The translations under genes were made by a program, and so were the position numbers. The notes under the pieces are model-generated. The model did no database searches. It worked only from the letters and a program-made list of their open reading frames with translations, and was not told the DNA's origin. Positions 4,990 through 35,100 of a stretch of DNA of 64,000 nucleotides are shown here, one piece after another. The stretch's first letter is position 1. Each line of letters starts with the position of its first letter. Origin of the DNA: a plasmid; the sequence record NZ_CP041047.1; one strand, 5' to 3'.

Positions 4990-5985
4990 CTACAAGCCGC
5001 TATAATAGTCAATTAATTGCTTGCAAAATTTCTTGCTTCGGATGTTACCAACATAGCTGCTGTTTAACAAAGTACCAAATTGTCGAGCTTTTTCATTATT
5101 GAACCCTCGAAATTTGTCTTGGTTGCTGTGATAGATATATATTGATTCAAATTCTCCAATGTTATTTCTTAAGAGCTGTTTATCTATATCTACTGCTATA
5201 TCGCTAATTAGTGACATGTATTTCTTCAATGATTCCAACTCAACCTTGTCATGGAATTTATCTTCCACTCGATCAACAAAGACGCCATTATCCATTCTGC
5301 TGAATGAATGCGCCGCTCGATTTCTTATTTTTCTGATTTTCTCCAATGTTTCAATGTTATCACGAATTGAGGATGGTAATTCCAAAAATACCAATTCGAA
5401 ATTCCTAGCCCTATCATACCAAGTACCCTTCACAAGGGAGGTTATTATTTTTTCAGTGTTCACTGCTTTGGTGTTTTTAATTAACTTCGTCCCATCAACT
5501 GCCCTAGATTCTCCAATCATGACACCTGGGTCTGATAACAAGGAAATTGTGCCAATCCTTTTTATATAAAATTCCAAATATGAAAGGATTGAGGTTAAAG
5601 CATTTATATAGCATAAATTCTGGAAGCTCTTGAAGTTTTTCATCCAAAGTGCTTTACTTTTCTCTACTCTTCTAGAGTCTATCCCGGACACATGAAATAT
5701 ATCATGAATAGTTTTATCAGCTTTATCATGCCTTACTAAATACTCCCCAAAGCTTTGTAATGGTACAAAGCTCCAAATATAATTATTTATTTCACAATGG
5801 TGTTTGTTAAAAACTCGATAAGAATTTGTATTTGGATCAAGACAACTCCATCTATTGAAACTTTCGTTCTCATCTTCGTTCATGATAACCACGTACTCCT
5901 TATTATAAATTTTATGGGCTGTAATTATTCGACTTGCAGAGAATAGCATGAACAAGCATAGTGGTGAATTTCTTTGTAATCCCAC
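4990..5985 (-). CDS. HEPN-motif protein, Abi-like (possibly Abi_2/AbiD-AbiF family)
   Basis: 331 aa in low-GC sequence. It contains RNRAAH, an Rx4H HEPN-type motif, at roughly residue 213. Its size is typical of abortive-infection proteins. The family assignment is a guess. Confidence 0.45.
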   Translation of the reverse strand: MGLQRNSPLCLFMLFSASRIITAHKIYNKEYVVIMNEDENESFNRWSCLDPNTNSYRVFNKHHCEINNYIWSFVPLQSFGEYLVRHDKADKTIHDIFHVSGIDSRRVEKSKALWMKNFKSFQNLCYINALTSILSYLEFYIKRIGTISLLSDPGVMIGESRAVDGTKLIKNTKAVNTEKIITSLVKGTWYDRARNFELVFLELPSSIRDNIETLEKIRKIRNRAAHSFSRMDNGVFVDRVEDKFHDKVELESLKKYMSLISDIAVDIDKQLLRNNIGEFESIYIYHSNQDKFRGFNNEKARQFGTLLNSSYVGNIRSKKFCKQLIDYYSGL

Positions 5986-6209
5986 TTTAATATACTATAT
6001 TAACCTTCTTATCCTGCCGATACTCCTGATGTAGACCTCGGTAAACTTAACAATGCTACCGCCATCAGAGTCATAAGTTCCGATAAGGTATTGATGTATC
6101 AAATGCTACCAAATTTCATGGATTGTTCAAGAAGGCAATCAGACAACCCCTAAAACTTGATGGGCCTAGCTATGTGATTGCGATGAGACATGGTGACCTG
6201 CCGGATGCA

Positions 6210-6550: not shown

Positions 6551-6877
6551 TTAGTCCTTCTCCTCGTCCCAGTCCTCTTCATCATCATCTTCCTCTTCAT
6601 ATTCGTCTTCTTCTTCATCGTCAACTTCGCCCACACCACCGCAGTGGGGGCAGATTGACGTTTCAGTTGTACCATCACCATAACAGGTGTGGCATTGTGC
6701 AAAGGGTTTGTCTTCTTCAGGACTGTAACCCGATCCATCGCACTCCGGGCAGGTAACCTCGAATAGGCCGTCTCGGCCATGGCATACTGGGCAAGTTTGA
6801 ATTGTCATTCTCTCTTCCTCTAATTTTGGGATGCATAAATAAGCCCGGTCAGTAACTGACCGGAGGGAAATCAACAC
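6551..6877 (-). CDS. DnaJ-type cysteine-rich (4x CxxCxGxG) zinc-finger protein with poly-acidic C-terminal tail
   Basis: Four repeats (CPVCHGRDG, CPECDGSG, CHTCYGDG, CPHCGGVG) are followed by the tail DDEEEDEYEEEDDDEEDWDEEKD. The likely start is MTIQTCP near 6808. It lies 3 bp downstream of the 398-aa ORF. Confidence 0.6.
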   Translation of the reverse strand: MLISLRSVTDRAYLCIPKLEEERMTIQTCPVCHGRDGLFEVTCPECDGSGYSPEEDKPFAQCHTCYGDGTTETSICPHCGGVGEVDDEEEDEYEEEDDDEEDWDEEKD

Positions 6878-6880
6878 GGC

Positions 6881-8077
6881 TTACTTAAACCGCGCCTTAA
6901 GGGATTTAATTTGGGGGGTCGTTGCCAGCTCACAGCACCAGGCTTCAGTATCTGGGAAGGCAGAAATTTTATGGCGTAGCTCGTGTAGGCGCTCGTTTTC
7001 GGGATCAACACCGTGCAGCGGCAAAAAATCCGGGGTCAGGATGCACAGTGCGCAGGCTGCAAAGCCTTCCATGCGCTTTTCAGCGCCCTCAAGCTGTATG
7101 GTCACCAAATTACGCGTTAGTCGATCCACTTCCACCGGATCATCACTGTTACGAATAGCCTCTACCACGATTGTGTTGTAATTGCGATAGAGATCGGTTT
7201 CGGAATCACCATGCGCAAATACTGGCACCTGGGCCCGACGCTGTCGATATTGTTCAAAGGTCATCTCAATCACCTCTAACGCCAGCTGCTTATCAATCCG
7301 GGTCGTATCAGCCTTATAGAAAAGTGATTGTGCTAGCTGATGGCCAGCGTATATCTCTCCAAGCCGAAACATTCCCGAGAGTGCCATGATGCCCCGCCAG
7401 GTTTTAATGGGCTCTCCGGTGTTAATCCAGCGTGTAGCAATGGTGCCAACCTCAAGAATGAGCAACTCCCAGGCAGGTGAAGAACGAACTTTGGTCATAA
7501 GGCTGTCTTCCTGGGCCAGGAAGTGTAAAGCGATAGCTCGGTACACATGTTTTTGCTCAGGATTCTCAGACCCAACTAAATGATCAAACACATGGTGGAA
7601 TTCCTCAATCAGGCGGCCTTCATCTTTGGCCTGAACCATCTCCTGATAATTTGATTCATACTTGTCTTCTACAATCGCCAGGGGCTGCACTAACTCGATT
7701 AGGTTCACACACTGAACATAAAGATTATCCGGCACCCGGAAATGTGCTTTCGCTGCATGGTGATTGATAAATGCAGACAGGCGGTCAGCCATAGCCTTAC
7801 GGCGATCAATAACCTGGTTCCAGGACAAACCTTCATCGACGACAAGGGCAAGTGCCGGTATATCATTGAGCTTTTCGACGCCCAGCATGGCAGTCAACAA
7901 ATCCGTTTCACCCGACTGTTGCCCTTGGACATGGTACGCATCATGGTAACCTTGCCGAAATGTGTTGATATCGGCTACAGAGTCAAATTTTTTGAGACTT
8001 GATTTAATGCGGCCGATGGCCGTGCGAGCAAGTTTACGGTCGAATTTCTGCGACGCGAATGACGATGGTGAGTTCAT
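6881..8077 (-). CDS. hypothetical protein (398 aa), operon partner of the zinc-finger protein
   Basis: Long ORF with coding-like composition and no motif I recognise. Its stop at 6881 sits 3 bp from the downstream ORF, whose last codon ends at 6877. Confidence 0.5.
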   Translation of the reverse strand: MNSPSSFASQKFDRKLARTAIGRIKSSLKKFDSVADINTFRQGYHDAYHVQGQQSGETDLLTAMLGVEKLNDIPALALVVDEGLSWNQVIDRRKAMADRLSAFINHHAAKAHFRVPDNLYVQCVNLIELVQPLAIVEDKYESNYQEMVQAKDEGRLIEEFHHVFDHLVGSENPEQKHVYRAIALHFLAQEDSLMTKVRSSPAWELLILEVGTIATRWINTGEPIKTWRGIMALSGMFRLGEIYAGHQLAQSLFYKADTTRIDKQLALEVIEMTFEQYRQRRAQVPVFAHGDSETDLYRNYNTIVVEAIRNSDDPVEVDRLTRNLVTIQLEGAEKRMEGFAACALCILTPDFLPLHGVDPENERLHELRHKISAFPDTEAWCCELATTPQIKSLKARFK

Positions 8078-8460: not shown

Positions 8461-9246
8461 TTATCTGGCGGCAATTACCGCATCTGCAATTTCCACAAAA
8501 CCAGCACCTCCCGGGCCACGGGTGATCCACTGTGGAGGTTTCGGGATTTGATCAAGGAAATCTGATACCGTGCTCACTCCCACCGTATGTTCAAAGAATG
8601 AAAACATCGGCGCATCATTCGTCGAGTCGCCGCTATACAATACGGCAGAACGTTCGGCATCAATGTCGAGATCGTAATAATCCCTGAGCACTCGTCGGGC
8701 CATAGATAACTTGTCATACTCTCCAGACCAACCAAGAATCCAGAGATTGTTTACGGTGGTTGTCGCACCTGCTTGCGTCAATGCGTTAAGTATTAATGAA
8801 CACTGATGGGCTTCTGGCGGTTTAGCAAAGGCAATGGACGTCATCCTGAAAGGTTGATCGTCGGCAAAATGAGCGGCAGGAATTTCCCTTTTTATCTGTT
8901 CCCCAATTTGCGTCAGGCGCTCAGCGACGTCAGGATATTTTTCTGTGCCGTGCCAGAAGAAACGCTCAATGCCATGACCGTCATTTTGCCTCCTGAAAAA
9001 CACACCGCCATTTTCACCAATGACACCATCAACTGGCCACATCCGTGCCATCTGGTCGCACCAGCCGGCTGGCGCGGCTGTGACCGGTATCACTTTGACT
9101 CCCGCGTTCTGCAACCGTTCCAACGCCATATAGGTTTCAGCCGCAAGGCGCCCCTTGTAAGTCAGCGTTTCATCCATGTCTGTGAGAACAAAACGCACAT
9201 GTTTAAATGTTGACGAATCTGCGGAACAGATCTCTTTCATAAGCAC
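8461..9246 (-). CDS. HAD-superfamily (IIB/Cof-type) hydrolase
   Basis: FVLTDMDETLT is HAD motif I (DxD). SGDSTNDAPMF is motif IV (GDxxND). Confidence 0.6.
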   Translation of the reverse strand: MLMKEICSADSSTFKHVRFVLTDMDETLTYKGRLAAETYMALERLQNAGVKVIPVTAAPAGWCDQMARMWPVDGVIGENGGVFFRRQNDGHGIERFFWHGTEKYPDVAERLTQIGEQIKREIPAAHFADDQPFRMTSIAFAKPPEAHQCSLILNALTQAGATTTVNNLWILGWSGEYDKLSMARRVLRDYYDLDIDAERSAVLYSGDSTNDAPMFSFFEHTVGVSTVSDFLDQIPKPPQWITRGPGGAGFVEIADAVIAAR

Positions 9247-9578
9247 GCTCGAAGACTTGTAGAGATAATAATGGTTTATAATTAAACGACTTATGGAATT
9301 ATTAAAGTCAAAATCGTACTAAGTTATAATTTTTATTGCGTTATTTACACCTCAGAGTCGCGTTTGGGCGGTGAAGGTGTGCTGGGTGCGGTTCAGATGC
9401 AGCATGTTCATACTCACACAACTTAACATCTCCCAACGGCTCTCGTCGAGTCATGGCGTTCTGAATGAAATCGGAGAAATCTTGCGATGACTAGTCGAAA
9501 AATTAAACTGTTATTTTATTACAACATGATATCCGGGGTTCTCTCCCCGGATATTTTATCATGACTACTTTCCTGTAT

Positions 9579-9968
9579 TCAGGCAAACTCAGGTGCATGA
9601 AGGGAAATATGGTGAGCATGAGGCTCTTCACATTTTAATAGTACGGCATATACCTTTTTTAACTCTTCCATATTTTCATGAAGAAAAGCTCTCAGATTTT
9701 CTTCCGAGTCCAGTAGCTCGAGACACTGGGGATGTGTCATATTGGTTAACTCAGGATGATGGTGAGATAATCGTTTTCCGGGAAGATAACCGGAGGTGAC
9801 ATGATGTAATGTCGCTGCTTTAATGTCTGATTTCTTCGCCACGGAAAGAAGATGCTGCGCCAGTTGGGGAGCTAGTAATCTGTGCCAAAAACGTCTGGCA
9901 CTGGCTTTAGATGCGACTGGAAAATATAATCTTAAAGCGGCTAAAGTCTGGACTGCATCTGCACTCAT
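9579..9968 (-). CDS. DUF190-like small protein co-transcribed with CLC-F
   Basis: 129 aa. It overlaps the end of the CLC gene by 4 bp. This small-protein family is commonly linked to crcB/fluoride loci. The call rests on context. Confidence 0.4.
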   Translation of the reverse strand: MSADAVQTLAALRLYFPVASKASARRFWHRLLAPQLAQHLLSVAKKSDIKAATLHHVTSGYLPGKRLSHHHPELTNMTHPQCLELLDSEENLRAFLHENMEELKKVYAVLLKCEEPHAHHISLHAPEFA

Positions 9969-11338
9969 TTAGAACTCTCCATTGTGACTTCTTTGTCTTT
10001 TTTCGGTTGGATTTTTATTTCATTTTCTTCACTTGATAACGCGAAAGATTTCTTCCTGCGAACAGCAGAAATTTCAGAAATGCGTAGCTCAGACGGAACA
10101 AGTGTACGGTATCGGCGGCTTTTGGCATGACCGACTCGCTGGGCATGATAAATCCCGGTATGTCCTGAAAAAAGATATGCCGTAAAGCAGCCGACGGCAG
10201 AAAATACCGCCATTTCGGTACCGAACAGTTCCATCGCCATAAAGGTTGTCGCAAGCGGGGTATTTGCCGCACCGGCAAACACAGCTACAAAACCTATCCC
10301 GGCCATAAAAGCAAATGGCATGTGCAGAAGAGGAGCGAGAGCATTCCCCAGAGTGGCACCAATGTAAAACAGAGGTGTGACCTCACCACCTTTAAATCCT
10401 GTCGCCAGAGAAACGATGGTAAAGCTCATTTTTCCCATAAAATCCATCGGATATAGCGGTTCTTTAAAGGCTCGGACAATTTCCGGAATACCGAGACCAA
10501 TATAACGGTCAGTACCGATAAACCAGACGGCGGCAGCAATCAGTATCCCTCCGAAAAAAGGACGCAAAGGAGCATATTTAATGTAACGTTTAACGATCCC
10601 ACTAGCCTTTCCGGTCGCGACAGAGAATACCATTCCTGCCAGCCCGAATACGGCACCCGCTATCACAACGGACAGGAAACTCCATATAGTAAATGCCGGG
10701 ATGAAATCGATGCGGTAATGTGTGTGATGTACCCCCCATGCCAGACAGACCTGATCGGCAAGCACTGCGGCAACCAGACAGGGGAACAGCGCGTCATAAC
10801 GAATTCGCCCTATTGCCAGTACTTCCATCCCAAAGATAGCACCGGCCATCGGGGTACCGAATACTGACGAAAAGCCCGCGCTCATCCCAGCCATCAGCAG
10901 TATCCGACGAGCGTCTTTCTTCACTTTAAACATATGCGTCAACTGATCGGCCAGGGCTCCCCCCATCTGAACCGCCGTCCCTTCGCGCCCTACCGAAGCG
11001 CCAAACAGATGCGACATGAGGGTACCGCCCAGAACCAGTGGCACCATCCTTATCGGAACCACCTTTCTCGGATCGTGTATCTCATCGATAATCAGGTTAT
11101 TGCCAGCGTTGACGGGCTCGCCATACCAGCTGTAAACCAGTCCGACCAGGAGACCTGCCAGTGGAAGCAACCATATCATCCAGGAATGGGATTCCCGCCA
11201 TGCTGTGGCATTATCGAGTGAGAGCAGAAATACCGCGGATGCAGTACCTGCCAGTAATGCGATAAGACTCGCAGTAACTAACCATGCCCCTATATAGGAA
11301 AATAATTCAATTTGATCGTGGTGTTTTAGTCGTTTCAT
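9965..11338 (-). CDS. CLC-family F-/H+ antiporter (EriC-F / CLC-F type)
   Basis: GREGT and GKEG-like CLC selectivity motifs are present. The true start MKRLKHH is near 11338. The longer listed ORF reads into the 5' leader that carries a fluoride riboswitch. Confidence 0.8.
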   Translation of the reverse strand: MKRLKHHDQIELFSYIGAWLVTASLIALLAGTASAVFLLSLDNATAWRESHSWMIWLLPLAGLLVGLVYSWYGEPVNAGNNLIIDEIHDPRKVVPIRMVPLVLGGTLMSHLFGASVGREGTAVQMGGALADQLTHMFKVKKDARRILLMAGMSAGFSSVFGTPMAGAIFGMEVLAIGRIRYDALFPCLVAAVLADQVCLAWGVHHTHYRIDFIPAFTIWSFLSVVIAGAVFGLAGMVFSVATGKASGIVKRYIKYAPLRPFFGGILIAAAVWFIGTDRYIGLGIPEIVRAFKEPLYPMDFMGKMSFTIVSLATGFKGGEVTPLFYIGATLGNALAPLLHMPFAFMAGIGFVAVFAGAANTPLATTFMAMELFGTEMAVFSAVGCFTAYLFSGHTGIYHAQRVGHAKSRRYRTLVPSELRISEISAVRRKKSFALSSEENEIKIQPKKDKEVTMESSK

Positions 11339-11409
11339 TGGTCCTGGCTCGTGAGTTTCAGGGCTGACCAATGGGGAGTGCAGAAAATAGCCTACAGTAC
11401 CGACAAAGG

Positions 11410-11480
11410 TCAGTGTTCTGTAGGCGTCATTAACTGTCAGAAAACAGTGGTTATAAGGAGGAACGCCATCTCCGCCGGGC
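11410..11480 (-). promoter_or_regulatory. candidate fluoride riboswitch (crcB RNA motif) upstream of CLC-F
   Basis: On the minus strand the leader reads GGCGGAGAUGGCGUUCCUCC–UUAUAACCACUG–hairpin–AAUGACGCCUAC. This matches the consensus GGNGAUGGNGUUCNCC…AACC…CUGAUGANNCCUAC. Confidence 0.55.
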
Positions 11481-11694
11481 ACTATACCTGTTCTGCCCAA
11501 CGTTGACCATGATTTTTCCTGCTTCGCCTGCGGAATTAGCCTCCCCTCATTCGCAAAACCGTAACGGATCGCCGGAAAATGGAGTGTTCCGCAGATTGTC
11601 TGCCAGTGAAATATTATTCAGGATAGACAGACCAAGATACAGGAAATGAAGATGACAGTTTTTAAATATTGCCACTGCCATCTCCCACCCATCA

Positions 11695-12273
11695 TTAAAT
11701 TTTGAATAATTTTAAGCTGATTGTTTTAAAAAAAGAGAATACATATTCACCTTTATATTTCCATAACCGGCAGAAAAGAGCATTAGACACCATCCCCGTG
11801 ATGACACCTCCTATCATATCGAGAGGAAAATGTACGCCAAGATAAATACGTGACCAGGCGACCAGAATACTAATGCCCAACACCACCAGGCCGGTACGTA
11901 CTGCCTTTGCGCTGATCAGCGCAAGCGCAAAACACACAAAAATGGTCATATGATCACTCGGGAATGAGTAATCTGCCGTATGCGAAAACCAGACATAGCC
12001 CAGCGGAACCATAAATGGTCTTGGATGCGGCCAGAAGGTTCCAATAATCAGGCTCAACACTACACCAATGACCATTGTTAACGTTGAGCGAAGCGCCAGT
12101 ATCTTTCCTTTTTCTTTACCGGCAAACCATAAAAAAATAATAATAAATGGTATGGCATAAATAAGGGTATTCGCAAAAAAATTCGCAATAACCAGAGCTG
12201 AATCAGGCGTTCCAGGCTTAGCGTTCATAGCAAGGAAAATTTTTCTGTTCAGAGTTTCAATTTCATTCAGCAT
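11695..12273 (-). CDS. PAP2-family membrane phosphatase
   Basis: 192-aa multi-TM protein with FPSDH and a later HxxxD-like sequence, typical of PAP2 acid-phosphatase motifs. Confidence 0.55.
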   Translation of the reverse strand: MLNEIETLNRKIFLAMNAKPGTPDSALVIANFFANTLIYAIPFIIIFLWFAGKEKGKILALRSTLTMVIGVVLSLIIGTFWPHPRPFMVPLGYVWFSHTADYSFPSDHMTIFVCFALALISAKAVRTGLVVLGISILVAWSRIYLGVHFPLDMIGGVITGMVSNALFCRLWKYKGEYVFSFFKTISLKLFKI

Positions 12274-12489
12274 AAATGTTAATTACCCAGAAAAAAGAAG
12301 CATAATACTGCCTGATTCTTAATATTCACTTAAGAAAAATCCATGATGGCTGGCAGATCCCCCCAGATTCTCACCGTTCATTCTCGCTGAAGCCCTGGAG
12401 GGATAGGATGACACCGCGCGTAAGGAATAACCTACACAACAGAGAACAATAATTGATATTGATTTATTGCAACGGTCCATATAAGATTG

Positions 12490-12565
12490 ATCAACAAGGT
12501 GATGGTGCTCCACCTTACCCAACCGCCGGTTTCTTTAAAAACCGGATGATGACGCCTGATATACA
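12490..12565 (+). promoter_or_regulatory. candidate fluoride riboswitch (crcB RNA motif) upstream of the ppaC-usp-eno-gpmA-crcB operon
   Basis: The leader reads AAGGUGAUGGUGCUCCACC–UUACCCAACCGCC–GGUUUCUUUAAAAACC–GGAUGAUGACGCCUGAUA. It matches the conserved P1, linker and 3' pseudoknot segments of the fluoride aptamer. Confidence 0.65.
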
Positions 12566-12592
12566 GTTGAATTAGTCCTTTTATAGGCATGT

Positions 12593-13570
12593 ATGTCAGG
12601 TATCGCTATGAAAAATCAAACCACATTACCGCTTACCTCAGAATCTCTCTCTTTTCAAAGAGATAATCCAATCCATGTCTTCGGTCATCGAAATCCTGAC
12701 AGCGATGCTATCTGCAGCGCGCTGGTTGTGGCTGACTGGCTTAATTACACTGGTCGTCCCGCAACGCCCTGGCGCCTGGGGGATATCACCCCGGAAACCC
12801 GTTACATCCTCAATGTCGCGGGTGTTTCACAACCTGATTTACTCACCGCCGACTTGACTGATAAAACCGTATGGCTGGTTGATTTTACGGATGCGGAGCA
12901 GGGACCATCCTCGTTGATGGACAGCAACGTCATCGGCATCATTGACCATCATCGTATTGGCACCCTCATTACCCGCAATCCACCGGATGTCTGGGTGCGG
13001 GCGGTAGGATGCTGCGGAACCGTAATTCTCTCAATTCTGATGCATGACATTCCGATGCCGATTACGGCATCTCAGGCAGTGTTGCTGATGGGGGCGATCC
13101 TCAGTGATACCGTTGCGCTGACTGGCCCCACCACCACCACTCAGGATCAGGAAGCCGTGGCAGTTTTGCGTGAAATCGCCGGTATCGATTATGACCAGTT
13201 TGTGACAGGGCTACTGCGTGCCAAAACAGATATAACCGGGCAATCCACATCGGTATTACTCAATCGTGACGCCAAAAATTACCGGATCCATGATGTGCCG
13301 CTGTTGTTGTCACAAATTGAGGTACGCGACATGGCTGATATTACTCCCCTGTTGCCCGCGCTGCTGCAGGAAATGGATAAAACCTGTAAAGACAGTTCGC
13401 TGGACATGGTTATTTTGATGGTGACAGACATCACCAACCGGAACTCCGTTTTACTTTTTTCAGATAGCAGCCTGACAGGCTCTCTCCAGATGTCGCTGCC
13501 CGGTATGACAAGCCGGAAGAAAGAAATCCTGCCCTGGCTGACCGACCACTTCGCTTCTTATAAGAGGTGA
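12593..13570 (+). CDS. DHH-family phosphoesterase, putative Mn-dependent inorganic pyrophosphatase (PpaC-like)
   Basis: NPDSDAICSA is DHH motif I. IIDHHR is the DHH motif. The length (~320 aa) fits family II PPases. The start may be at 12608. Confidence 0.6.
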   Translation: MSGIAMKNQTTLPLTSESLSFQRDNPIHVFGHRNPDSDAICSALVVADWLNYTGRPATPWRLGDITPETRYILNVAGVSQPDLLTADLTDKTVWLVDFTDAEQGPSSLMDSNVIGIIDHHRIGTLITRNPPDVWVRAVGCCGTVILSILMHDIPMPITASQAVLLMGAILSDTVALTGPTTTTQDQEAVAVLREIAGIDYDQFVTGLLRAKTDITGQSTSVLLNRDAKNYRIHDVPLLLSQIEVRDMADITPLLPALLQEMDKTCKDSSLDMVILMVTDITNRNSVLLFSDSSLTGSLQMSLPGMTSRKKEILPWLTDHFASYKR

Positions 13571-13573
13571 TTT

Positions 13574-14002
13574 ATGCAAATTTACCGGCATGCCTTATTA
13601 CTTGTACAGAATGAAACCGATGGTCTGCTGTTGCTTGAGCAGGCAGAACGTCTGGCAAAAGAGATGGGCACCCGTATTACTGTCGGCCATCTCAGCGCTG
13701 ACTACCGGGAACTGGATTATACCAGTGATTCATTAACTAAAGATCGCCAGTCACACGAAGTTATTGATGCAAAGGCAATGCTGAGCCGTCTGGTGGAGTC
13801 CAGCAGTATTGATATCAAAGTCAGGTCCATCGTCAGTATCCATCGTTTCCGGGACGTCGAAGCCGTTGTTCAGCACGAAGATATTGATCTGGTCATGCTG
13901 GGGCATAAAAACCGCCTGTTCGGGGTTTTTTCTTCCTACTCTTTCGAATTTATCAATCACCTTTCTGTTGATGTTTTGATTAAACACATTCCAACCCCAT
14001 AA
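13574..14002 (+). CDS. universal stress protein family (UspA-like)
   Basis: 142 aa with a Usp-like fold signature (…VDLVMLGHKN…). It sits 3 bp after the upstream gene. Confidence 0.6.
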   Translation: MQIYRHALLLVQNETDGLLLLEQAERLAKEMGTRITVGHLSADYRELDYTSDSLTKDRQSHEVIDAKAMLSRLVESSSIDIKVRSIVSIHRFRDVEAVVQHEDIDLVMLGHKNRLFGVFSSYSFEFINHLSVDVLIKHIPTP

Positions 14003-15304
<1,302 letters not shown>

Positions 15305-15355
15305 TTCCGTCACCCTTCCCGTATGCTTAGCTACGGGAAGGGGTAAGGTGATCCT

Positions 15356-15550
15356 ATGAACGGAAAAATACTCATACTGTCAACAGCAACGGGGATCCTG
15401 GCAACCTGTCTGGTTTTCCTGATCGCCGATGTCTTTTTTAACGTACTGCCAGATGATACCAGCGCTGTTGTAATCGCGCTGTTCATCGGGAGCTGCACCC
15501 ATCTTCTGATGCGCCACCTCCTTGACCGGAGCCCAGGTAAATTCAGGTAA
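15356..15550 (+). CDS. small single-TM membrane protein (hypothetical)
   Basis: 64 aa with one hydrophobic helix. It lies between eno and gpmA in the same orientation. Confidence 0.3.
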   Translation: MNGKILILSTATGILATCLVFLIADVFFNVLPDDTSAVVIALFIGSCTHLLMRHLLDRSPGKFR

Positions 15551-15616
15551 TCAGTACAAACAACTGAACGGGTTCAGGTCCTTCAGGTTCAGTCGCTGTT
15601 GGTGACCGACAGGTAG

Positions 15617-16309
15617 TTGCTTATGGGAAAAATTATTTTACTCCGCCATGGAGAGAGTCAGTGGAATCAGCAAAATCGTTTTACCGGATGGGAAGATGTT
15701 CCGCTGACGCAGAAAGGAGTGGAGGAAGCCCGGCGCGCAGCAAACCTGATAAAACGGTCGGGGATCATCATTGATGGTGCCTGCACATCCGTTCTGAATC
15801 GGGCAATTCATTCACTCTGGCTGATAATGGAAACGCTGAATCAATTGTGGTTACCGGTGGACAAATCATGGCGGTTAAATGAACGCCATTACGGTGCGCT
15901 TCAGGGAATGAATAAGGATGAAGCCGCTCAACAAATTGGCCAGAATATCGTTTATCACTGGCGGAGGAGCTATCGTGGCATCCCTCCTCCGTTGCTGGAT
16001 GCGCCTGCTTTACTTCATCGTGAGGCACGTTATCGCCATGTGTCCCTGACGGACCTACCGGCGGGTGAAAGTCTGGAAATGACGCAGCGAAGGCTGCTGC
16101 CTTACTGGCACCACGTCATTGTCCCGCGTGTTGCCAGTGGTGAAACCATGCTGCTGGTCAGTCATGCTAATGCATTGCGTGCGCTAACCATGTTTATTGA
16201 GCAGATTGATGAGAACAAGGTTCCCGATCTGCATGTCCTGACGGGTATCCCCGTACTGTATGAAATGAATGAAAATCGGGCCATCACCGCACGTTATTCC
16301 CTTGAATGA
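15617..16309 (+). CDS. gpmA: 2,3-bisphosphoglycerate-dependent phosphoglycerate mutase
   Basis: LLRHGESQWNQQNRFTGW is the canonical dPGM active site. The probable start is MGKIILL near 15623. Confidence 0.85.
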   Translation: MLMGKIILLRHGESQWNQQNRFTGWEDVPLTQKGVEEARRAANLIKRSGIIIDGACTSVLNRAIHSLWLIMETLNQLWLPVDKSWRLNERHYGALQGMNKDEAAQQIGQNIVYHWRRSYRGIPPPLLDAPALLHREARYRHVSLTDLPAGESLEMTQRRLLPYWHHVIVPRVASGETMLLVSHANALRALTMFIEQIDENKVPDLHVLTGIPVLYEMNENRAITARYSLE

Positions 16310-16343
16310 CGGTCTGATGGTGCCCTGATTTCTGCGAGGTGGT

Positions 16344-16718
16344 ATGTACAAATCATTATTCGCGGTAGTGATAGGCGGCTCGATCGGCTGTGTGATCCGC
16401 TGGATACTGTCCATGCGTCTCAATGCACTTTTCCCCAATCTTCCACCTGGCACCCTGGTGGTTAATCTGGTTGGCGGATTTATCATCGGTATGGCACTGG
16501 CCTTCTTTGTCCGGCAGCCTCACCTCGATCCCGCCTGGAAGTTTTTTATTACCACCGGCTTATGCGGCGGTATGACCACCTTTTCCACTTTTTCAGCTGA
16601 GGTGGTAGTTCTACTTCAGAATGGCAATTATGCATGGGCTGTCATTTCCGTACTGACGCACGTAACTGGCTCGCTTTTGATGACTGCAGCCGGTTTTTTT
16701 GTAATGACACTGTTGTAA
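16344..16718 (+). CDS. crcB: fluoride ion channel CrcB/Fluc
   Basis: 124 aa with four TM segments, and GGxxGxxxR-like and TFSTFS motifs typical of CrcB. Confidence 0.85.
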   Translation: MYKSLFAVVIGGSIGCVIRWILSMRLNALFPNLPPGTLVVNLVGGFIIGMALAFFVRQPHLDPAWKFFITTGLCGGMTTFSTFSAEVVVLLQNGNYAWAVISVLTHVTGSLLMTAAGFFVMTLL

Positions 16719-16828
16719 AGGCATATGCGCCATACACTTAACCGGTGCCATGTCTCCGTCAGACTTTTATTATATCGGCATAACAACACGCCTGACCTGC
16801 CGGGTCAGTTTTTTCCGGAGAAGGATGT

Positions 16829-19165
16829 ATGGAGATGACCCCTGAGAATAACGTGAAGGGACTTTCCGAAGCCGAGGTGCAGGCCAGGCTGGTGCAATAT
16901 GGCTATAACGAAGTACGTGAACAGCCTCCGGGCCAGCTGCGTACGATCCTCAAACGTCTGTGGGGCCCCATCCCCTGGATGCTCGAAATTGCGCTGGTAC
17001 TCGAAGTGGCTCTGGGAAAGACGGTTGAACCCGCCATCATTGCAGGATGGCTCGCTTTCAGTGCGGTCCTTGGCGGCATTCAGGAACGGCGGGCACAGTC
17101 AGCACTTGACCTGCTGCGTAGTCGGCTGAAAGTTAATACCAGTGTATGCCGTGATGGCACCTGGCGCCAGATACCGGCCCGAGGGCTTGTCCCCGGTGAC
17201 TTTATCGTCTTAACGGCGGGGAACCTGGTCCCTGCCGACTGTATGATTGATGAGGGAGTCGTGGATGTTGACCAGGCAGCCCTGACCGGGGAGTCGACCC
17301 AGGAGTCACACAACAAGGGTGATACTCTCTATTCAGGATCGACGATTACACGCGGTAAGGCGACAGGAACCGTCACCGCCACCGGTACCCGAAGCTACTT
17401 TGGGCGTACGGCAGAGCTGGTACGAACGGCCAGCTCTGCCAGCCATCTTGAACAGCTTCTGTTCGCTGTTGTGCGCTATCTTGTGACCATTGACGCCGTG
17501 CTTGCGGTCATTCTGGCCGTTGTTGCACTCTGGCGCGGTGAAGATTTGTTGCCCCTCGTCCCCTTTTTTCTTGTTCTCATTATTGCGACCGTCCCGGTGA
17601 CAATGCCGGCAGCCTTTACGGTCGCCAATGCAGTGGAAGCCCGGCGACTGGCGAATCAGGGGGTACTTGTCACCGGCCTGTCAGCGGTACAGGAAGCGGC
17701 AACCATGGATGTGCTGTGTATCGACAAAACCGGTACACTGACCAGAAACCAGCAGTCAGTTGCCGGCATAACGGCGCTTCCGGGAGAGAATGAGGACGAG
17801 GTACTGGCCTGGGCTGCCGCAGCCTGCGACGAAACGATGCAGGGGCAACTTGAGATGGCGATTCTGGATGCGTTACGACGCCGGGGGGGAATGCCGCACA
17901 TCCGTGAGCAATTCATCCCGTTCGATCCTGCCACGAAACGTTCCGAAGCCCGTGTGTGTTCAGACAATGACGGATCGTCCGTTCACGTCATTCTGGGTTC
18001 ACCGATGGTCGTTGCATCACTCGCCGAATCTCCTCCTGAGTTCACCACGATCCAGCAGGCCATGGCGGCGTCCGGCGCCAGGATCCTGGCAGTCGCAACC
18101 GGCACCGACGGCCATCTCCGTATCCGAGGGTTGCTGGCACTAGCCGATACACTACGCGATGATGCCGCAGCCCTCGTCAGGGATATCCGGGCACTGGGTA
18201 TCAGGATAATCATGGTCACCGGTGATACGGTTGATACCGCCAGAGTTATCAGCCGCCAGGCAGGACTCGGTGACCGCTTCGGCGATGCAGCCAGGGACCT
18301 GCAGGCACCTCTCCACTTTGATGGTTTTGCTAACTTCTATCCGGAGGAAAAATTCCGTCTGGTGCAGTCCCTGCAACAAACGGGCTGTATAGTCGGCATG
18401 ACGGGTGACGGTGTGAATGATGCGCCGGCACTGAAACAAGCCGGAGTGGGCATTGCCGTACAAACAGCGTCTGACGTGGCAAAAGCAGCTGCTCAGGTGG
18501 TATTGACCCACCCCGGGTTAGACGGTGTTGCCGCCGTCGTATCAGGGGGCCGCTGTGTGTTTCGCCGTATGCTGACCTGGACAATAACGAAAATAGCCCG
18601 GACCGTTGAGCTGGCGGCCCTGCTGACCATCGGCTATATCGCGACAGGATTCTTCGTCACACCGCTGGTTCTGATTGCCGTGATTGTGGTTCTCAATGAT
18701 GTGGTGACCATCACGCTGGCGACAGACCGGTCATGGATTTCTTCATCACCGGAAAGATGGAACGTTGGTGAAATTGCCAGGCTGGGAGGTGTCCTGGCCG
18801 CAGGCTGGCTGGTTCTGGCATTCATTATCCTGTGGTTCGTCCTTACCAGGTTGCAGCTTCCCGTCCCACAAATCCAGGCCCTGATGTTCGCCTATCTGAT
18901 GTATACGGCCCAGATGACGATTTATCTTTCACGAACGCCGGGCCGCTGCTGGTCACTCCGGCCGGGCCGGTTTGTTGTGTTGGCCACGGTGGGCAATATC
19001 ATCATTGCCACCGTACTGGCTGCCGGTGGTTTTCTTATGACGCCGGTTTCACTGACACTGCTGGTCATCATGTTTGCTCTGGTTTTGCTGGCCACCCTTC
19101 TGCTCGATCAGATCAAGATATGGCTCTTCGCCAGAAGACCTGTTGAGGACTCACCGAAAAGCTGA
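16829..19165 (+). CDS. P-type cation-transporting ATPase (type III H+/Mg2+-ATPase-like)
   Basis: TGES, CIDKTGTLT (DKTGT phosphorylation site), MVTGD and GDGVNDAPAL hinge motifs are all present. Length is 778 aa. Confidence 0.85.
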   Translation: MEMTPENNVKGLSEAEVQARLVQYGYNEVREQPPGQLRTILKRLWGPIPWMLEIALVLEVALGKTVEPAIIAGWLAFSAVLGGIQERRAQSALDLLRSRLKVNTSVCRDGTWRQIPARGLVPGDFIVLTAGNLVPADCMIDEGVVDVDQAALTGESTQESHNKGDTLYSGSTITRGKATGTVTATGTRSYFGRTAELVRTASSASHLEQLLFAVVRYLVTIDAVLAVILAVVALWRGEDLLPLVPFFLVLIIATVPVTMPAAFTVANAVEARRLANQGVLVTGLSAVQEAATMDVLCIDKTGTLTRNQQSVAGITALPGENEDEVLAWAAAACDETMQGQLEMAILDALRRRGGMPHIREQFIPFDPATKRSEARVCSDNDGSSVHVILGSPMVVASLAESPPEFTTIQQAMAASGARILAVATGTDGHLRIRGLLALADTLRDDAAALVRDIRALGIRIIMVTGDTVDTARVISRQAGLGDRFGDAARDLQAPLHFDGFANFYPEEKFRLVQSLQQTGCIVGMTGDGVNDAPALKQAGVGIAVQTASDVAKAAAQVVLTHPGLDGVAAVVSGGRCVFRRMLTWTITKIARTVELAALLTIGYIATGFFVTPLVLIAVIVVLNDVVTITLATDRSWISSSPERWNVGEIARLGGVLAAGWLVLAFIILWFVLTRLQLPVPQIQALMFAYLMYTAQMTIYLSRTPGRCWSLRPGRFVVLATVGNIIIATVLAAGGFLMTPVSLTLLVIMFALVLLATLLLDQIKIWLFARRPVEDSPKS

Positions 19166-19229: not shown

Positions 19230-20753
19230 TCAGCTGCGTTCAGCGGGTTGTGCCGGAGGCGTGAAGACCTCCCGGTAGAGGTCTTCACCATAGCTGGTAT
19301 CCAGTGGTGTCCCTTCCGTCATGCGGAACGTTCTTTCACCATCATCACGCCTCTCCGCGCACAGATAAACCGTATCCTGGTGATACTCCTGATAAAATGC
19401 GCAGGCAAATTCCGACGTGTGTGTGACGAAAAACAGCTTCACATGACACTCTGCCAGCGCGGTCACTATCCCCCTGATAATACCGGCTCCTTCCCGGCTG
19501 TTGGTGGCGGCAAACGATTCATTAAACAACACCAGATCATCCGGCTTCAGTTCGCTAACGATATCCCGCATGCGTCTGAGCTCTTCATCAAGCTTTCCGC
19601 TGACCATATGGCTGTCTTCTTCACATTTATAATGAGTAAAAATCTGCCGGCAGATATCGGAACTGAAACATTCAGCAGACACAAACATTCCCGTCTGCAT
19701 CATTATCTGAGCCAGGCCAATGCTGCGCAGGAACGTTGATTTTCCACCCTGGTTAGCCCCGGTAATAATAAAGGTATTTTTATTATCCGTTTTCAGGGTA
19801 TTACTGATGACAGTATCCGGAGAGGTCAGCGCCAGACAGGTATCAAATAATGAATCAAAGACCAGATGGCGCTCCCTTTTGTAGATCGGAACCGGAAAAC
19901 ACTGTGGCACATTCCGGTGATTCAGCACCTCAGCAAGATTCAGGCAGGCGATATAGAAACCCAGCTCAGCACGCAACGCGCGAAAGAAATTGAGCAGATG
20001 TGCTGTAGACTGAGCCATTGCGCTGGCAACCAACACCAGTCCTTCATCCTGCAGGTCACTGAGTGCCCTGAACCCATTTTCATCCCGGGGAGCAATCTGT
20101 ACCGTATAATGTTCCGGTTTGCGGGAAAACAGACGCCGGAACCAGTTTCTGCTCTCCGCGGCAGGCTGGCGAAGAACATAGGCCTCCCCCCGGTTTCCCG
20201 CCCCCAGTCTGGCGCTCAGCAATACCCCTTTTTTAAATGTCATCTGCCTGAGGTGTTCCTCGATCACCTCAAGGTATTCATCATTCAGCTCCTGCATAAT
20301 CATGACAAACAGGCGTTCCATACCGGGTGAGGCGACATGAAGAAGGTTTTTCTCCGCTATTCCCCTGACCTTACGTAAATTGTCCAGCAGAAAACGGGTG
20401 AACGAAATGGACTGATGAAGAATGGCGGAAGGGTATCGCCCGAAAATACCGTAATGGAGTTTTTCCTTTTCCATTAACAGGCAGTCCACCACAATTTTAT
20501 AAAATTCCCTGAAAATTTCAGGATTGTAGAGACAATCGCGCAGGATAGCCTGCCGGTATTCAATATCCTGTACCTCGGTCAATGGTTGTGAACACGCTTT
20601 TCTCACCACCGAATACAGAAAATCATCCCCACCGGAAAGCGCCTGAAAGAGGACATCCAGCTCAAGGTCTTTAGTCAGAAGGGTAAAGTGGGCAGGAAAT
20701 GATTCATCCACGATAAAATCATCATGTTTATACATCAGGTATGCTTTCATCCG
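19230..20753 (-). CDS. MutS-related ATPase (domain V; no mismatch-binding domain evident)
   Basis: ITGANQGGKSTFLRSIGLA is Walker A. LVLFNESFAATNSREGAGI is a MutS-type Walker B/GTNT segment. FFVTHTSEF is THxxEL-like. The likely start is MKAYLMYK near 20753, which gives about 507 aa. Confidence 0.6.
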   Translation of the reverse strand, partial: RMKAYLMYKHDDFIVDESFPAHFTLLTKDLELDVLFQALSGGDDFLYSVVRKACSQPLTEVQDIEYRQAILRDCLYNPEIFREFYKIVVDCLLMEKEKLHYGIFGRYPSAILHQSISFTRFLLDNLRKVRGIAEKNLLHVASPGMERLFVMIMQELNDEYLEVIEEHLRQMTFKKGVLLSARLGAGNRGEAYVLRQPAAESRNWFRRLFSRKPEHYTVQIAPRDENGFRALSDLQDEGLVLVASAMAQSTAHLLNFFRALRAELGFYIACLNLAEVLNHRNVPQCFPVPIYKRERHLVFDSLFDTCLALTSPDTVISNTLKTDNKNTFIITGANQGGKSTFLRSIGLAQIMMQTGMFVSAECFSSDICRQIFTHYKCEEDSHMVSGKLDEELRRMRDIVSELKPDDLVLFNESFAATNSREGAGIIRGIVTALAECHVKLFFVTHTSEFACAFYQEYHQDTVYLCAERRDDGERTFRMTEGTPLDTSYGEDLYREVFTPPAQPAERS

Positions 20754-21070
20754 TTTAACCCCGCTTTTATTTTTTCGTAGGTCAGCCCATATTTCTGCAC
20801 CAGGGTGACCGACCATGCCACGCCATCAGCAGGTTTCCTGATAATTTTATAGGTCCGGGAGGCCTCATTATCCTCTTCCACCGTACTCATCATGCTGACG
20901 ACTGACGTATCCAGTGCCGTCAGTTCATCGATAAACGTCACGCAGATACAAATGGCATCCAGCGCGATGACCTTTTCAATGATCCGGGTACCCAGAAAAA
21001 TCGCATCGTGTGAGGTTGTGGAGGTGAATATCTCATTCATAATGATGAGACTGCGGGTAGTGGATTTATC
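20747..21070 (-). pseudogene. C-terminal fragment of a second MutS-related ATPase, 5' end replaced by IS26
   Basis: LIIMNEIFTSTTSHDAIFLG…VTFIDELTALD…YKIIRKPADG matches MutS domain-V Walker B through the C-terminal helix. It abuts the IS26 inverted repeat at 21071. Confidence 0.5.
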
Positions 21071-21890
21071 CGGCACTGTTGCAAATAGTCGGTGGTGATA
21101 AACTTATCATCCCCTTTTGCTGATGGAGCTGCACATGAACCCATTCAAAGGCCGGCATTTTCAGCGTGACATCATTCTGTGGGCCGTACGCTGGTACTGC
21201 AAATACGGCATCAGTTACCGTGAGCTGCAGGAGATGCTGGCTGAACGCGGAGTGAATGTCGATCACTCCACGATTTACCGCTGGGTTCAGCGTTATGCGC
21301 CTGAAATGGAAAAACGGCTGCGCTGGTACTGGCGTAACCCTTCCGATCTTTGCCCGTGGCACATGGATGAAACCTACGTGAAGGTCAATGGCCGCTGGGC
21401 GTATCTGTACCGGGCCGTCGACAGCCGGGGCCGCACTGTCGATTTTTATCTCTCCTCCCGTCGTAACAGCAAAGCTGCATACCGGTTTCTGGGTAAAATC
21501 CTCAACAACGTGAAGAAGTGGCAGATCCCGCGATTCATCAACACGGATAAAGCGCCCGCCTATGGTCGCGCGCTTGCTCTGCTCAAACGCGAAGGCCGGT
21601 GCCCGTCTGACGTTGAACACCGACAGATTAAGTACCGGAACAACGTGATTGAATGCGATCATGGCAAACTGAAACGGATAATCGGCGCCACGCTGGGATT
21701 TAAATCCATGAAGACGGCTTACGGCACCATCAAAGGTATTGAGGTGATGCGTGCACTACGCAAAGGCCAGGCCTCAGCATTTTATTATGGTGATCCCCTG
21801 GGCGAAATGCGCCTGGTAAGCAGAGTTTTTGAAATGTAAGGCCTTTGAATAAGACAAAAGGCTGCCTCATCGCTAACTTTGCAACAGTGC
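21071..21890 (+). mobile_element. IS26 (IS6 family), copy A
   Basis: GGCACTGTTGCAAA inverted repeats at both ends. tnp26 (MNPFKGRHFQRDIILWAVRWY…) is at 21135–21839. Boundaries are ±1 bp. Confidence 0.95.
21135..21839 (+). CDS. tnpA: IS26 transposase Tnp26
   Basis: DDE transposase of the IS6 family, 234 aa counted from MNPF. Confidence 0.95.
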   Translation: MNPFKGRHFQRDIILWAVRWYCKYGISYRELQEMLAERGVNVDHSTIYRWVQRYAPEMEKRLRWYWRNPSDLCPWHMDETYVKVNGRWAYLYRAVDSRGRTVDFYLSSRRNSKAAYRFLGKILNNVKKWQIPRFINTDKAPAYGRALALLKREGRCPSDVEHRQIKYRNNVIECDHGKLKRIIGATLGFKSMKTAYGTIKGIEVMRALRKGQASAFYYGDPLGEMRLVSRVFEM

Positions 21891-22153
21891 CACTTTTTGT
21901 GGTGTTTAAATAAAACATTGGGCACCAAAACATATCCAAAAGATGCAAATTTCGTTACCATGAAAACACAAAGGTGTCAGAGAAAGAATCTCGGTCCACC
22001 TATAGTTCAAGTCCGACAGGCTGCTAACCGCAGCGATTTGCCGACCTTGCGCGCCTGCATATGCCTGCGCGGGCGACGGTGCAAAAATCGCGCGCATGCT
22101 GCGAATCGAACGAACCAAAACCGCAATAGAACACACCGTCCAGGGAGCAAGCA

Positions 22154-23845: not shown

Positions 23846-24079
23846 TGCGGTAACTAGAACCAACATTTGAAACATTGCTGAATGGCGCGTCATCACCGCT
23901 TATTCTGGGAGAAATGAAATGCTAAACTCATTTACGTAGGAATCCTTGCGGTCCCCCATGACCGAACAGTTCGACGCCAAGTCGGCCGAGATTCGCGCGA
24001 TGCTCAACAACCAACTCGAACCAAAGCACACGGCCGAGATCCGCGAGCGCATGCTGGCGGCGGGCTTGCCGATATAAGC

Positions 24080-33130: not shown

Positions 33131-35100
<1,970 letters not shown>

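Follow-up and report, generated by a model that had tools for sequence, protein, structure and literature searches.

The window analysed here is a 64,000-nt stretch of plasmid DNA (sequence record NZ_CP041047.1), and our subject is a gene block within it, at 8461–19165, that had been read as a fluoride-resistance island. Open reading frame (ORF) listing with Pfam and NCBIfam profile searches recovered 10 of the 10 genes named in that original prediction, including both exporters, a CLC-F antiporter (213 bits to structure 6D0J) and CrcB/Fluc (182.5 bits to NF010792). Its inventory overlooked two fluoride riboswitches, the MutS-related genes to the right of the block and a truncation by the insertion sequence IS26. 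The features of the block are listed below, with profile scores in bits and cut-offs after “vs.”

8461–9246, minus strand: HAD-IIB family phosphatase (TIGR01484, 65 vs 41.8)
9529–9554, minus strand: 10-bp GC-rich hairpin, directly 3′ of the DUF190 stop codon (RNA fold and sequence)
9579–9968, minus strand: DUF190/PII-like small protein (PF02641, 25.1 vs 23.4)
9965–11338, minus strand: CLC-F type fluoride/proton antiporter (best solved relative 6D0J)
11382–11425, minus strand: predicted intrinsic terminator, GCCUACAG...CUGUAGGC then UAUUUUCU (RNA fold)
11414–11482, minus strand: fluoride riboswitch aptamer 1, ahead of CLC-F/DUF190 (RF01734, 48.1 bits, E = 3e-10 for the whole window)
11481–11509, minus strand: sigma-70-like promoter match, TGGTCA, 17-nt spacer, TATAGT (consensus scan only)
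11695–12273, minus strand: PAP2 phosphatase, YbjG type, undecaprenyl-diphosphate phosphatase-like (PF01569, 54.8 bits)
12489–12565, plus strand: fluoride riboswitch aptamer 2, ahead of ppaC–usp–eno–gpmA–crcB–ATPase (RF01734, 43.4 bits, E = 1e-8 for the whole window)
12554–12602, plus strand: predicted helix in which the aptamer 2 3′ strand GCCUGAUAUACA pairs with UGUAUGUCAGGU (RNA fold)
12608–13570 (start at 12593 also possible), plus strand: PpaC, family II (DHH/DHHA2, Mn-type) inorganic pyrophosphatase (PPase; DHH and DHHA2 Pfam domains)
13574–14002, plus strand: universal stress protein, Usp (PF00582, 26.8 vs 24)
14018–15304, plus strand: accessory enolase, Eno (TIGR01060, 616.7 vs 300)
15313–15342, plus strand: predicted hairpin just 3′ of eno, CCCUUCCCGUA...UACGGGAAGGG (RNA fold)
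15623–16309 (or start at 15617), plus strand: GpmA, a phosphoglycerate mutase of the 2,3-bisphosphoglycerate-dependent type, dPGM (subfamily model TIGR01258, 278.4 vs 81.7)
16344–16718, plus strand: CrcB/Fluc fluoride channel (NF010792, 182.5 vs 125; TIGR00494, 113.3 vs 80.45)
16792–16815, plus strand: terminator-like hairpin and T-run between crcB and the ATPase gene (consensus scan)
16829–19165, plus strand: type IIIA (plasma-membrane H+-ATPase-like) P-type ATPase, 778 aa, full length (TIGR01647)

Two arms behind fluoride riboswitches

Each multi-gene arm is headed by an aptamer scoring above the RF01734 gathering score of 34 bits. Across an alignment of 17 aptamers, drawn from the window and from related loci, 92.7% of the alignment cells in P1, P2 and the pseudoknot are paired, and both sides have changed in 10 of the 13 pairs; the pseudoknot pair 18–74, mostly A-U, reads C-G in the first window aptamer and U-G in the second. 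The minus-strand RNA fold of 11336–11485 (-48.9 kcal/mol, z = -3.9) places the 5′ arm of the intrinsic terminator over the 3′ pseudoknot strand of aptamer 1, and therefore has the form of an expression platform of a transcriptional ON switch; from this fold, aptamer 1 is predicted to be the ON switch of CLC-F/DUF190. The leader of aptamer 2 folds differently (12485–12625; -41.2 kcal/mol, z = -3.8). The Shine-Dalgarno sequence (AGG) that serves the start codon at 12608 is masked by its GCCUGAUAUACA/UGUAUGUCAGGU helix; as no U-tract follows, this helix is unlike a terminator, and a translational expression platform is probable. Aptamer 2 occupies the same position as the riboswitch reported upstream of ppaC in Enterobacter cloacae FRM (PMC5533749). 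The sigma-70-like match ends exactly at the 5′ edge of aptamer 1; such matches do not exceed their frequency in shuffled sequence, and we offer this putative promoter as a suggestion only. A permissive Rfam search of 5000–30000 found no third fluoride riboswitch.

The first arm joins an exporter to a small companion protein. The CLC protein, whose start codon lies 76 nt downstream of aptamer 1, matches the CLC-type fluoride/proton antiporter 6D0J with 213 bits (E = 5.5e-62) vs 50 bits for the canonical CLC 3ND0; its motifs GNNLI, GREGT and GGEVTPLF align with the CLC-F structure, and no NCBIfam ClcA or ClcB equivalog reaches its cut-off. Its likeness to the Enterococcus casseliflavus CLC-F (6D0J/6D0K/6D0N) extends over residues 22–403, with the GREGT gating-glutamate motif and GGEVTPLF in common, whereas GMNLV there is GNNLI here, and the window protein adds a C-terminal extension of ~55 residues and a coupled DUF190 gene. 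A 4-base overlap between the CLC-F stop and the DUF190 start points to translational coupling.

The DUF190 assignment, formerly a call from context, can now be made directly: the protein scores above the PF02641 cut-off, which 23 of 30 subfamily members match, and its product has a predicted PII-like fold. A sequence search against solved structures found nothing for it; the closest matches of its AlphaFold model (predicted local distance difference test score 72) are 2DCL and 1O51, both DUF190 structures, followed by CutA1, SbtB and GlnK. The predicted beta-alpha-beta-beta-alpha-beta fold agrees with GlnK–AmtB, SbtB–SbtA and the DUF190 structures PH1503/TM0021 at identities of only 10–18%. 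The genes glnK and sbtB adjoin membrane transporter genes, as DUF190 adjoins CLC-F here, and by this analogy DUF190 would probably be a regulator or partner of CLC-F. The CLC–DUF190 pair also stands behind a riboswitch in Pandoraea (locus L095; L numbers denote the related loci that we compared). Another DUF190 protein linked to fluorine is FlJ of the Streptomyces fluorinase clusters (PMC9173684). The hairpin at 9529–9554 is the probable end of the CLC-F/DUF190 transcript and the probable left edge of the conserved core.

The second arm opens with a pyrophosphatase that falls 0.1 bit short of the NF003877 cut-off (282.9 vs 283), with both its DHH and DHHA2 domains above their Pfam cut-offs and the DHH and SRKK motifs visible in its translation. 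Fluoride at 0.5 mM strongly inhibits family I PPases, that of E. coli among them, whereas the family II class is reported to be fluoride-insensitive or much less affected; one family II PPase gave fluoride tolerance when substituted for the yeast enzyme (PMC11857102). PpaC would thus act as a non-homologous bypass isozyme, not as a duplicate of the host PPase. The earlier claim of second copies of enolase and PPase consequently stands for enolase—an accessory gene whose product is 55% identical to E. coli chromosomal Eno—and falls for the PPase. In fluoride loci of other taxa, the PPase genes are family I copies. GpmA passes its subfamily model and stays below the cut-off of the E. coli-type equivalog (NF010713, 282.8 vs 305). 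The strong hairpin behind eno is a probable partial terminator or stabiliser, which would fit the two-transcript pattern of the FRM operon described below.

The two remaining genes of the block lie outside these arms. PAP2 shares the strand of aptamer 1, lies upstream of it and diverges from ppaC, and is therefore outside riboswitch control; only the general PAP2 domain model reaches its cut-off, the YbjG equivalog NF008813 scoring 161.5 bits vs 229. It sits beside ppaC in all island lineages, even the divergent L103 (57% identity), never behind a riboswitch; its standing is that of a neighbour with a conserved position, inside the enterobacterial island family only. HAD-IIB reaches no equivalog cut-off, has no riboswitch upstream and is set apart from DUF190 by the 9529–9554 hairpin; present in L101 and absent from pC51_002 (L098), L102 and L103, it is a lineage-specific accessory add-on of one sub-lineage, outside the conserved core.

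As a side observation, three other loci encode BacA/UppP, a non-homologous undecaprenyl-diphosphate phosphatase, next to the ATPase or close to it (L003, 11354–12145; L092, 13537–13842; L093, 15370–16146). In a Stenotrophomonas integrative and conjugative element, the ATPase has an alkaline phosphatase gene on one side and BacA on the other, and no riboswitch is close by. Speculatively, the YbjG-like PAP2 and BacA neighbours hint that undecaprenyl-diphosphate dephosphorylation is also backed up.

The FRM operon and the spread of the island

In E. cloacae FRM, ppaC–uspA–eno–gpmA–crcB–orf5249 form an operon behind a fluoride riboswitch on the genomic island GI3 (Liu et al., 2017; PMC5533749). 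Its genes are nearly silent without fluoride (RPKM, reads per kilobase per million mapped reads, 7–29) and are induced 8–177x by fluoride (uspA 120x, eno 177x); a short ppaC–uspA–eno transcript is made alongside a full-length one that reads through into an ATPase remnant (PMC5533749). The operon is needed for growth at 4000 mg/L fluoride, and its deletion lowers the minimum inhibitory concentration (MIC) from 4000 to 1500 mg/L (PMC5533749). Compared by order and sizes, the window has the same arrangement (riboswitch–ppaC–uspA–eno–gpmA–crcB–ATPase, on one strand) and matching genes (ppaC 963 bp, uspA 429 bp, eno 1287 bp), and both loci lie on horizontally acquired DNA with flanking transposases. 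However, the FRM locus is chromosomal and its ATPase is a 261-bp stump (orf5249, a “divalent cation transporting ATPase” adjoining resistance-nodulation-division efflux genes; PMC5533749), whereas the window has an intact 778-aa ATPase on a plasmid-type carrier and adds a divergent riboswitch–CLC-F unit; no CLC-F/DUF190, PAP2 or MutS-related/antiporter unit is described for FRM. A locus of FRM layout, with proteins 94–98% identical to those of the window, also occurs on the E. coli EH09-18-41 chromosome. The operon was thus characterised in a truncated form and is intact in the window.

More broadly, the same aptamer family defines the crcB-motif fluoride riboswitch “super-regulon” (Weinberg, 2010, PMC2864571; Baker et al., 2012, via PMC7266159 and PMC11139923), in which crcB, eriC-F, pyrophosphatase, enolase, Usp, Na+/H+ antiporter, HAD-type and mutS-like genes stand downstream. 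A P-type H+-ATPase-like pump, PAP2 and DUF190 are not mentioned as regulon members in the literature searched, a body to which the primary 2012 paper and its supplement did not belong; queries for “P-type ATPase” with “fluoride riboswitch,” and for DUF190 with fluoride, gave incidental matches only.

The 10.7-kb block recurs at ≥99% identity on seven plasmids of 254–340 kb from Klebsiella, Citrobacter and E. coli, and at lower identity on 51 plasmids from six genera, mostly conjugative or mobilisable; among complete E. coli genomes it is found in 2 of 5426. The known hosts are clinical, wastewater and food isolates. Two riboswitches heading two arms, and a block kept on 51 plasmids, place the gene assemblage at 8461–19165 far beyond chance. 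These bounds are not those of the conserved unit. Homology to other island lineages starts at 9515–9529 (query 1055–1069), and the conserved core runs from ~9515 to beyond 21071, past 19165 and into the MutS-related pair: HAD-IIB falls outside at the left, and the MutS-related genes at 19230–21071 had been omitted at the right. On pC51_002, the full three-unit order (described below) is retained at a DNA identity of only 88%, with HAD-IIB absent. The divergent lineage L103 (PAP2 57%, PpaC 62% and Eno 88% identical to the window proteins) retains both the PAP2 gene divergent from ppaC and the antiporter–Usp–MutS-related unit; there, a riboswitch-controlled major facilitator superfamily transporter replaces CLC-F, and the ATPase is absent.

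The carrier is plasmid-type DNA, with a RepB/DnaB backbone at ~34000–50600 and a mosaic of IS26, IS1, IS5 and IS21 elements around the island. Chromosomal integration, considered because of the malT–glpRGED–glgPAC genes at 52078–63992, was ruled out by this backbone and by the 100% identity of that gene block on three plasmids. A chromosomal eno is present in 5426 of 5426 complete E. coli genomes. The island genes are therefore accessory, and the refutation that the original prediction had named, enolase and PPase genes that are the only copies in the genome, is not borne out.

Taken together, the two fluoride riboswitches and the experimentally characterised FRM architecture back the earlier identification of a fluoride-resistance island and of a comparable enterobacterial cluster, which the ppaC arm matches. 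It is highly likely, in our view, that this is a resistance island that moves horizontally, is induced by fluoride and is composed of riboswitch-controlled transcription units. Its kind is already known from fluoride riboswitch regulons and the FRM operon, of which the window is a fuller member; RefSeq already annotates the island genes and, in related records, the riboswitches. What we add is the full three-unit architecture and the plasmid spread. Some observations weigh against this interpretation. The induction and MIC data stem from the related FRM locus, with its ATPase stump and without the CLC-F arm. PAP2 and HAD-IIB have no riboswitch, and a tblastn search found no homologues of either, or of PpaC, in the fluoride loci of other taxa. 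Finally, a specialised “fluoride enolase” clade was considered and rejected: island Eno is equally 52–55% identical to E. coli Eno and to the riboswitch-locus enolases of Methanocella, Gluconobacter and Sphingobium and, as it does not group with the latter, gives no sign of intrinsic fluoride tolerance.

The same facts could be read as a mainly metabolic-fitness or general-stress island, with fluoride one signal among others and plasmid retention for reasons unrelated to it. Work cited in a paper on the Pantoea plasmid pPV989-94 had plasmid-borne gpmA and eno raising the growth rate of Erwinia on sucrose (PMC5971314); PAP2 and HAD-IIB escape riboswitch control, and fluoride exposure is not stated for the island's hosts. 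However, a fluoride-specific riboswitch heads both multi-gene arms, each with a dedicated fluoride exporter, unrelated taxa repeatedly have these gene families behind fluoride riboswitches, and the FRM genes pass from near silence to as much as 177-fold induction. We therefore consider a general metabolic island very improbable and retain that of a fluoride-resistance island.

The P-type ATPase and its relatives

The intact ATPase had been described as an H+-ATPase-like pump, and the profile and structural comparisons agree. Type IIIA is its best subtype profile by far (TIGR01647, 606.8 bits; next best, type IB, 269 bits), and among solved structures it is closest to Pma1 of Neurospora and yeast and to AHA2 of Arabidopsis, at ~350 bits over the whole length. 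The DKTGT phosphorylation site, a PVxMP-type motif in M4, the M6 Asp (in LND) and the M5 Arg all align with Pma1 and AHA2, and D299–T303, N623–D624 and R591 are invariant in 15 members of the ATPase clade. Pma1 and AHA2 are ~920–950 aa long, whereas the 778-aa window protein is without their N- and C-terminal regulatory extensions and is bacterial, plasmid-borne and set in a fluoride operon. The FRM orf5249 is the stump of such a Pma1-like pump.

A different cargo has been suggested by name. Several public sources label close homologues as a “divalent cation transporter,” as the FRM paper did the stump, and a Mg2+/Mn2+ transporter could, with free Mg2+ complexed by fluoride, supply PpaC with Mn and enolase with Mg, the metals on which they depend; fluoride perturbs divalent metal availability, and ion transporters are over-represented in fluoride operons (reviewed in PMC11139923). 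The ATPase also narrowly misses the type IIIA equivalog cut-off (615.5). However, the labels in those sources are automatic annotations, the Mg2+-ATPase (IIIB) profile gives 220 bits vs 607 for type IIIA, the full-length structural match to MgtA is ~190 bits vs ~350 to H+-ATPases, and the M6 Asp and M5 Arg of the H+ pumps are invariant in the clade. We consider divalent-cation transport unlikely and treat the protein below as a proton-pump-like ATPase.

Close homologues (61–80% identity) occur in Stenotrophomonas, Achromobacter, Gluconobacter, Sphingobium, Pandoraea, Methanocella and metagenomes. Ten non-enterobacterial loci of this clade (≥60% identity) were hand-picked for long contigs, and riboswitches were sought with Rfam and with our own model; as a control, we took 80 loci with distant type IIIA ATPases (34–57% identity) among the matches listed, which is not a clade survey. 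A fluoride riboswitch lay ≤10 kb from the ATPase in 7 of the 10 close-clade loci (Achromobacter, Methanocella, Gluconobacter, Sphingobium, Pandoraea and two metagenome or genome contigs), as against 1–2 of the 80 controls (one clear, one marginal), again among the matches listed (Fisher's exact test, p ~1e-7 to 5e-7). An enolase, CrcB or MutS-related neighbour was found at none of these 80 listed control loci.

In 4 of the 7 riboswitch-linked loci, the ATPase is on the riboswitch strand and is the final gene of a run beginning at the riboswitch: riboswitch–156-aa ORF–ATPase in Achromobacter, riboswitch–NUDIX–prenyltransferase-like–enolase–ATPase in Methanocella, riboswitch–enolase–dynamin-like GTPase–MutS_V x2–ATPase in Gluconobacter, and riboswitch–two ORFs–ATPase in Sphingobium. 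Elsewhere, the order is Usp–enolase–CrcB–CrcB–ATPase (L092), and in Pandoraea CLC–DUF190 and antiporter–Usp units adjoin the ATPase. On this comparative evidence, the pump clade and a pair of proteins with MutS domain V (see below) would be recurrent members of the fluoride regulon, a membership for which the literature searched, with the primary 2012 study outside that search, contained no statement. The original prediction had proposed that the ATPase, PAP2 and HAD members may extend the known set. Comparative genomics favours this for the ATPase; PAP2 is a conserved neighbour in enterobacteria only, and HAD-IIB is lineage-specific and set apart from the core.

Whether the whole prokaryotic clade (≥~60% identity, reaching from Enterobacteriaceae as far as the archaeon Methanocella) serves as a proton pump dedicated to fluoride stress is a further step. 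We think this possible, if somewhat short of probable, and several points tell against it. The score falls narrowly below the TIGR01647 equivalog cut-off, and the M2 Asn of plant and fungal pumps is an invariant Ser in the clade. The terminator-like hairpin at 16792–16815 separates crcB from the ATPase gene. No riboswitch is near the ATPase in 3 of the 10 close-clade loci, and these were hand-picked, not a random sample, so that the riboswitch frequency gives an indication rather than a census. In vitro, metal fluorides inhibit P-type ATPases themselves.

As an observation apart, one distant ATPase among the matches listed has a clear riboswitch: in Candidatus Desulfosporosinus nitrosoreducens (L016), an ATPase of 48% identity (1595–3832) lies ~1.3 kb downstream of a riboswitch at 186–245 on the same (plus) strand. 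It may stand for recruitment on a second, independent occasion, or for an edge of the clade that lies deeper.

These data are consistent with a conceptual model of layered resistance. Cytoplasmic fluoride would bind both aptamers, allowing read-through past the terminator into CLC-F and DUF190 at aptamer 1 and freeing the ppaC ribosome-binding site at aptamer 2, so that ppaC–usp–eno–gpmA–crcB–ATPase would be translated. As a first layer, the CLC-F F-/H+ antiporter and the Fluc channel would export F-, to judge from the functions of their families, and DUF190 may regulate the exporter in the manner of GlnK–AmtB and SbtB–SbtA. As a second, the family II PPase would bypass the host's fluoride-sensitive family I enzyme, and the extra Eno and GpmA would add capacity at the fluoride-sensitive glycolytic step. 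The third layer would be energetic: HF influx combined with F- export would amount to a net proton leak, to which CLC-F would add further imported H+, and the type IIIA ATPase would most likely expel H+ at the cost of ATP, restoring cytoplasmic pH and the membrane potential that drives Fluc, with a CPA2 cation:proton antiporter contributing in intact relatives. A link between fluoride stress and pH homeostasis has been reviewed (PMC11139923). PAP2 (YbjG-like) would be a constitutive neighbour, perhaps a backup of undecaprenyl-diphosphate recycling, and HAD-IIB a late, lineage-specific addition.

If this model holds, bacterial and archaeal Pma1-like pumps gain a physiological role for which no description was found, and fluoride resistance acquires, through the pump, a third, energetic layer in addition to export and enzyme bypass. 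With the intact ATPase and its cross-phylum riboswitch link, the energetics of fluoride resistance become a testable hypothesis. Fluoride tolerance limits the biotechnological defluorination of per- and polyfluoroalkyl substances (PFAS) and other organofluorines, and also shapes the microbial response to fluoridated products. A compact and self-transmissible island that joins both exporter types, a fluoride-insensitive family II PPase, additional glycolytic enzymes and a proton-pump-like ATPase behind fluoride-sensing RNAs—and that already circulates in clinical and wastewater Enterobacteriaceae—is a ready-made cassette for engineering fluoride-tolerant strains.

The third unit, IS26 and neighbouring loci

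Beyond the ATPase, the window carries the remains of a third unit:

19230–20816, minus strand: MutS-related protein, MutS domain V ATPase only (PF00488, 72.8 bits)
20747–21071, minus strand: 3′ remnant of the proximal MutS-related gene (partial MutS_V match; homology to p027_SK3a ends at 21071)
21072–21891, plus strand: IS26 (inverted repeat GGCACTGTTGCAAA at 21072; DDE_Tnp_IS240 transposase at 21117–21839), with an end at 21891 that we take from the known 820-bp length of the element

On plasmids of E. coli, K. pneumoniae and C. freundii, this unit follows the ATPase on the opposite strand in the order fluoride riboswitch–CPA2 cation:proton antiporter–Usp–MutS-related x2, and RefSeq annotates the riboswitch upstream of the CPA2 antiporter in such relatives. 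The third riboswitch is absent from the window because IS26 deleted that part: the 5′ part of the proximal MutS-related gene, Usp, the CPA2 antiporter and riboswitch 3 are all lost, leaving the distal MutS-related gene (19230–20816) intact and severed from its promoter and riboswitch.

This loss, together with the IS26/IS1/IS5/IS21 mosaic around the island, raises the possibility of a decaying passenger, one unit of which IS26 removed and the rest of which is perhaps no longer expressed or useful. The remaining two units nevertheless have their ten genes and both riboswitches intact and are ≥99% identical on seven other plasmids, and in FRM the ppaC arm alone, even with a truncated ATPase, suffices for high resistance. 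Decay of the whole island thus seems to us a very remote explanation, marginally more so than a general metabolic role, and a functional resistance island remains our reading of the two intact units.

The best NCBIfam similarity of the MutS-related proteins is to the KamC reactivase ATPase, at 74 bits and far under cut-off, and not to repair MutS. Examined as a candidate defence gene, the MutS-related protein had no PADLOC match, and we draw no conclusion on its role. Pairs of ATPases with MutS domain V only also stand directly behind fluoride riboswitches in unrelated bacteria (L008, 5706–8782; Sphingobium L010, 4293–7516; L092, 1900–6832; L002, 127–3182). A dynamin-like GTPase joins the pair in L008 and L092 and stands alone behind a riboswitch in Methanocella (L007). 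Alongside the pump, the MutS-domain-V ATPase pair recurs, often together with a dynamin-like GTPase; it would form another module of the regulon.

Two IS26 copies (transposases at 21117–21839, plus strand, and 24413–25135, minus strand) bracket 21072–25180 in the manner of a composite transposon; it is the left copy that truncates the island, and a gene for a PAS-HAMP methyl-accepting chemotaxis protein (22154–23845) lies between them. Just past the second copy is a gene for an NhaA-type Na+/H+ antiporter (25310–26461, minus strand) that has no fluoride riboswitch and differs from the lost CPA2 antiporter.

Further families recur in the fluoride loci of other taxa (L006, 4751–6445; L010, 1755–3611 and 15882–17177; L093, 1–1420 and 7607–8911). 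ILVD_EDD, a dihydroxy-acid/6-phosphogluconate dehydratase with an Fe-S centre, is directly downstream of the riboswitch in L006 and lies elsewhere in L010 and L093, and CMAS, a cyclopropane-fatty-acid synthase-like methyltransferase, is behind the riboswitch in L093; DUF211, DUF983, NUDIX and a prenyltransferase-like protein also recur. These are candidates for fluoride-sensitive targets or for membrane adaptation. In Sphingobium (L010), two riboswitches on the same strand ~540 nt apart (18632–18691 and 19233–19293, minus strand) head a long DUF211–...–Usp–CMAS–CrcB–Usp–His_Phos–Eno operon, in a stretch of 20 kb that has six aptamers in total.

Left of the island, the window carries a complete Gabija anti-phage system at 427–3566 on the plus strand, with GajA (575 aa; PADLOC, 716 bits) overlapped by GajB (471 aa; 567 bits), a pair that also lies a few kb from the fluoride island on the related plasmids L100 and L101. 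A 331-aa ORF at 4990–5985 (minus strand) has a weak HEPN (Cthe_2314-like) match and lies in a low-GC stretch (38% at 4001–6000). Beside HAD-IIB, at 6551–8077 (minus strand), are genes for a 398-aa protein without Pfam match and a small DnaJ-type CXXCXGXG zinc-finger protein, both of which accompany the island on the 100% identical plasmids.

At the far right, the window holds malT–glpR–glpG–(glpE)–glpD–glgP–glgA–glgC (52078–63992), ~80% identical to the E. coli chromosome, with 100% identical segments on three plasmids (E. asburiae, E. mori and C. freundii). The block meets the plasmid backbone at a copy of ISKpn26 (IS5; 50590–51791), and the plasmid appears to have captured a second set of maltose-regulator, glycerol and glycogen genes.

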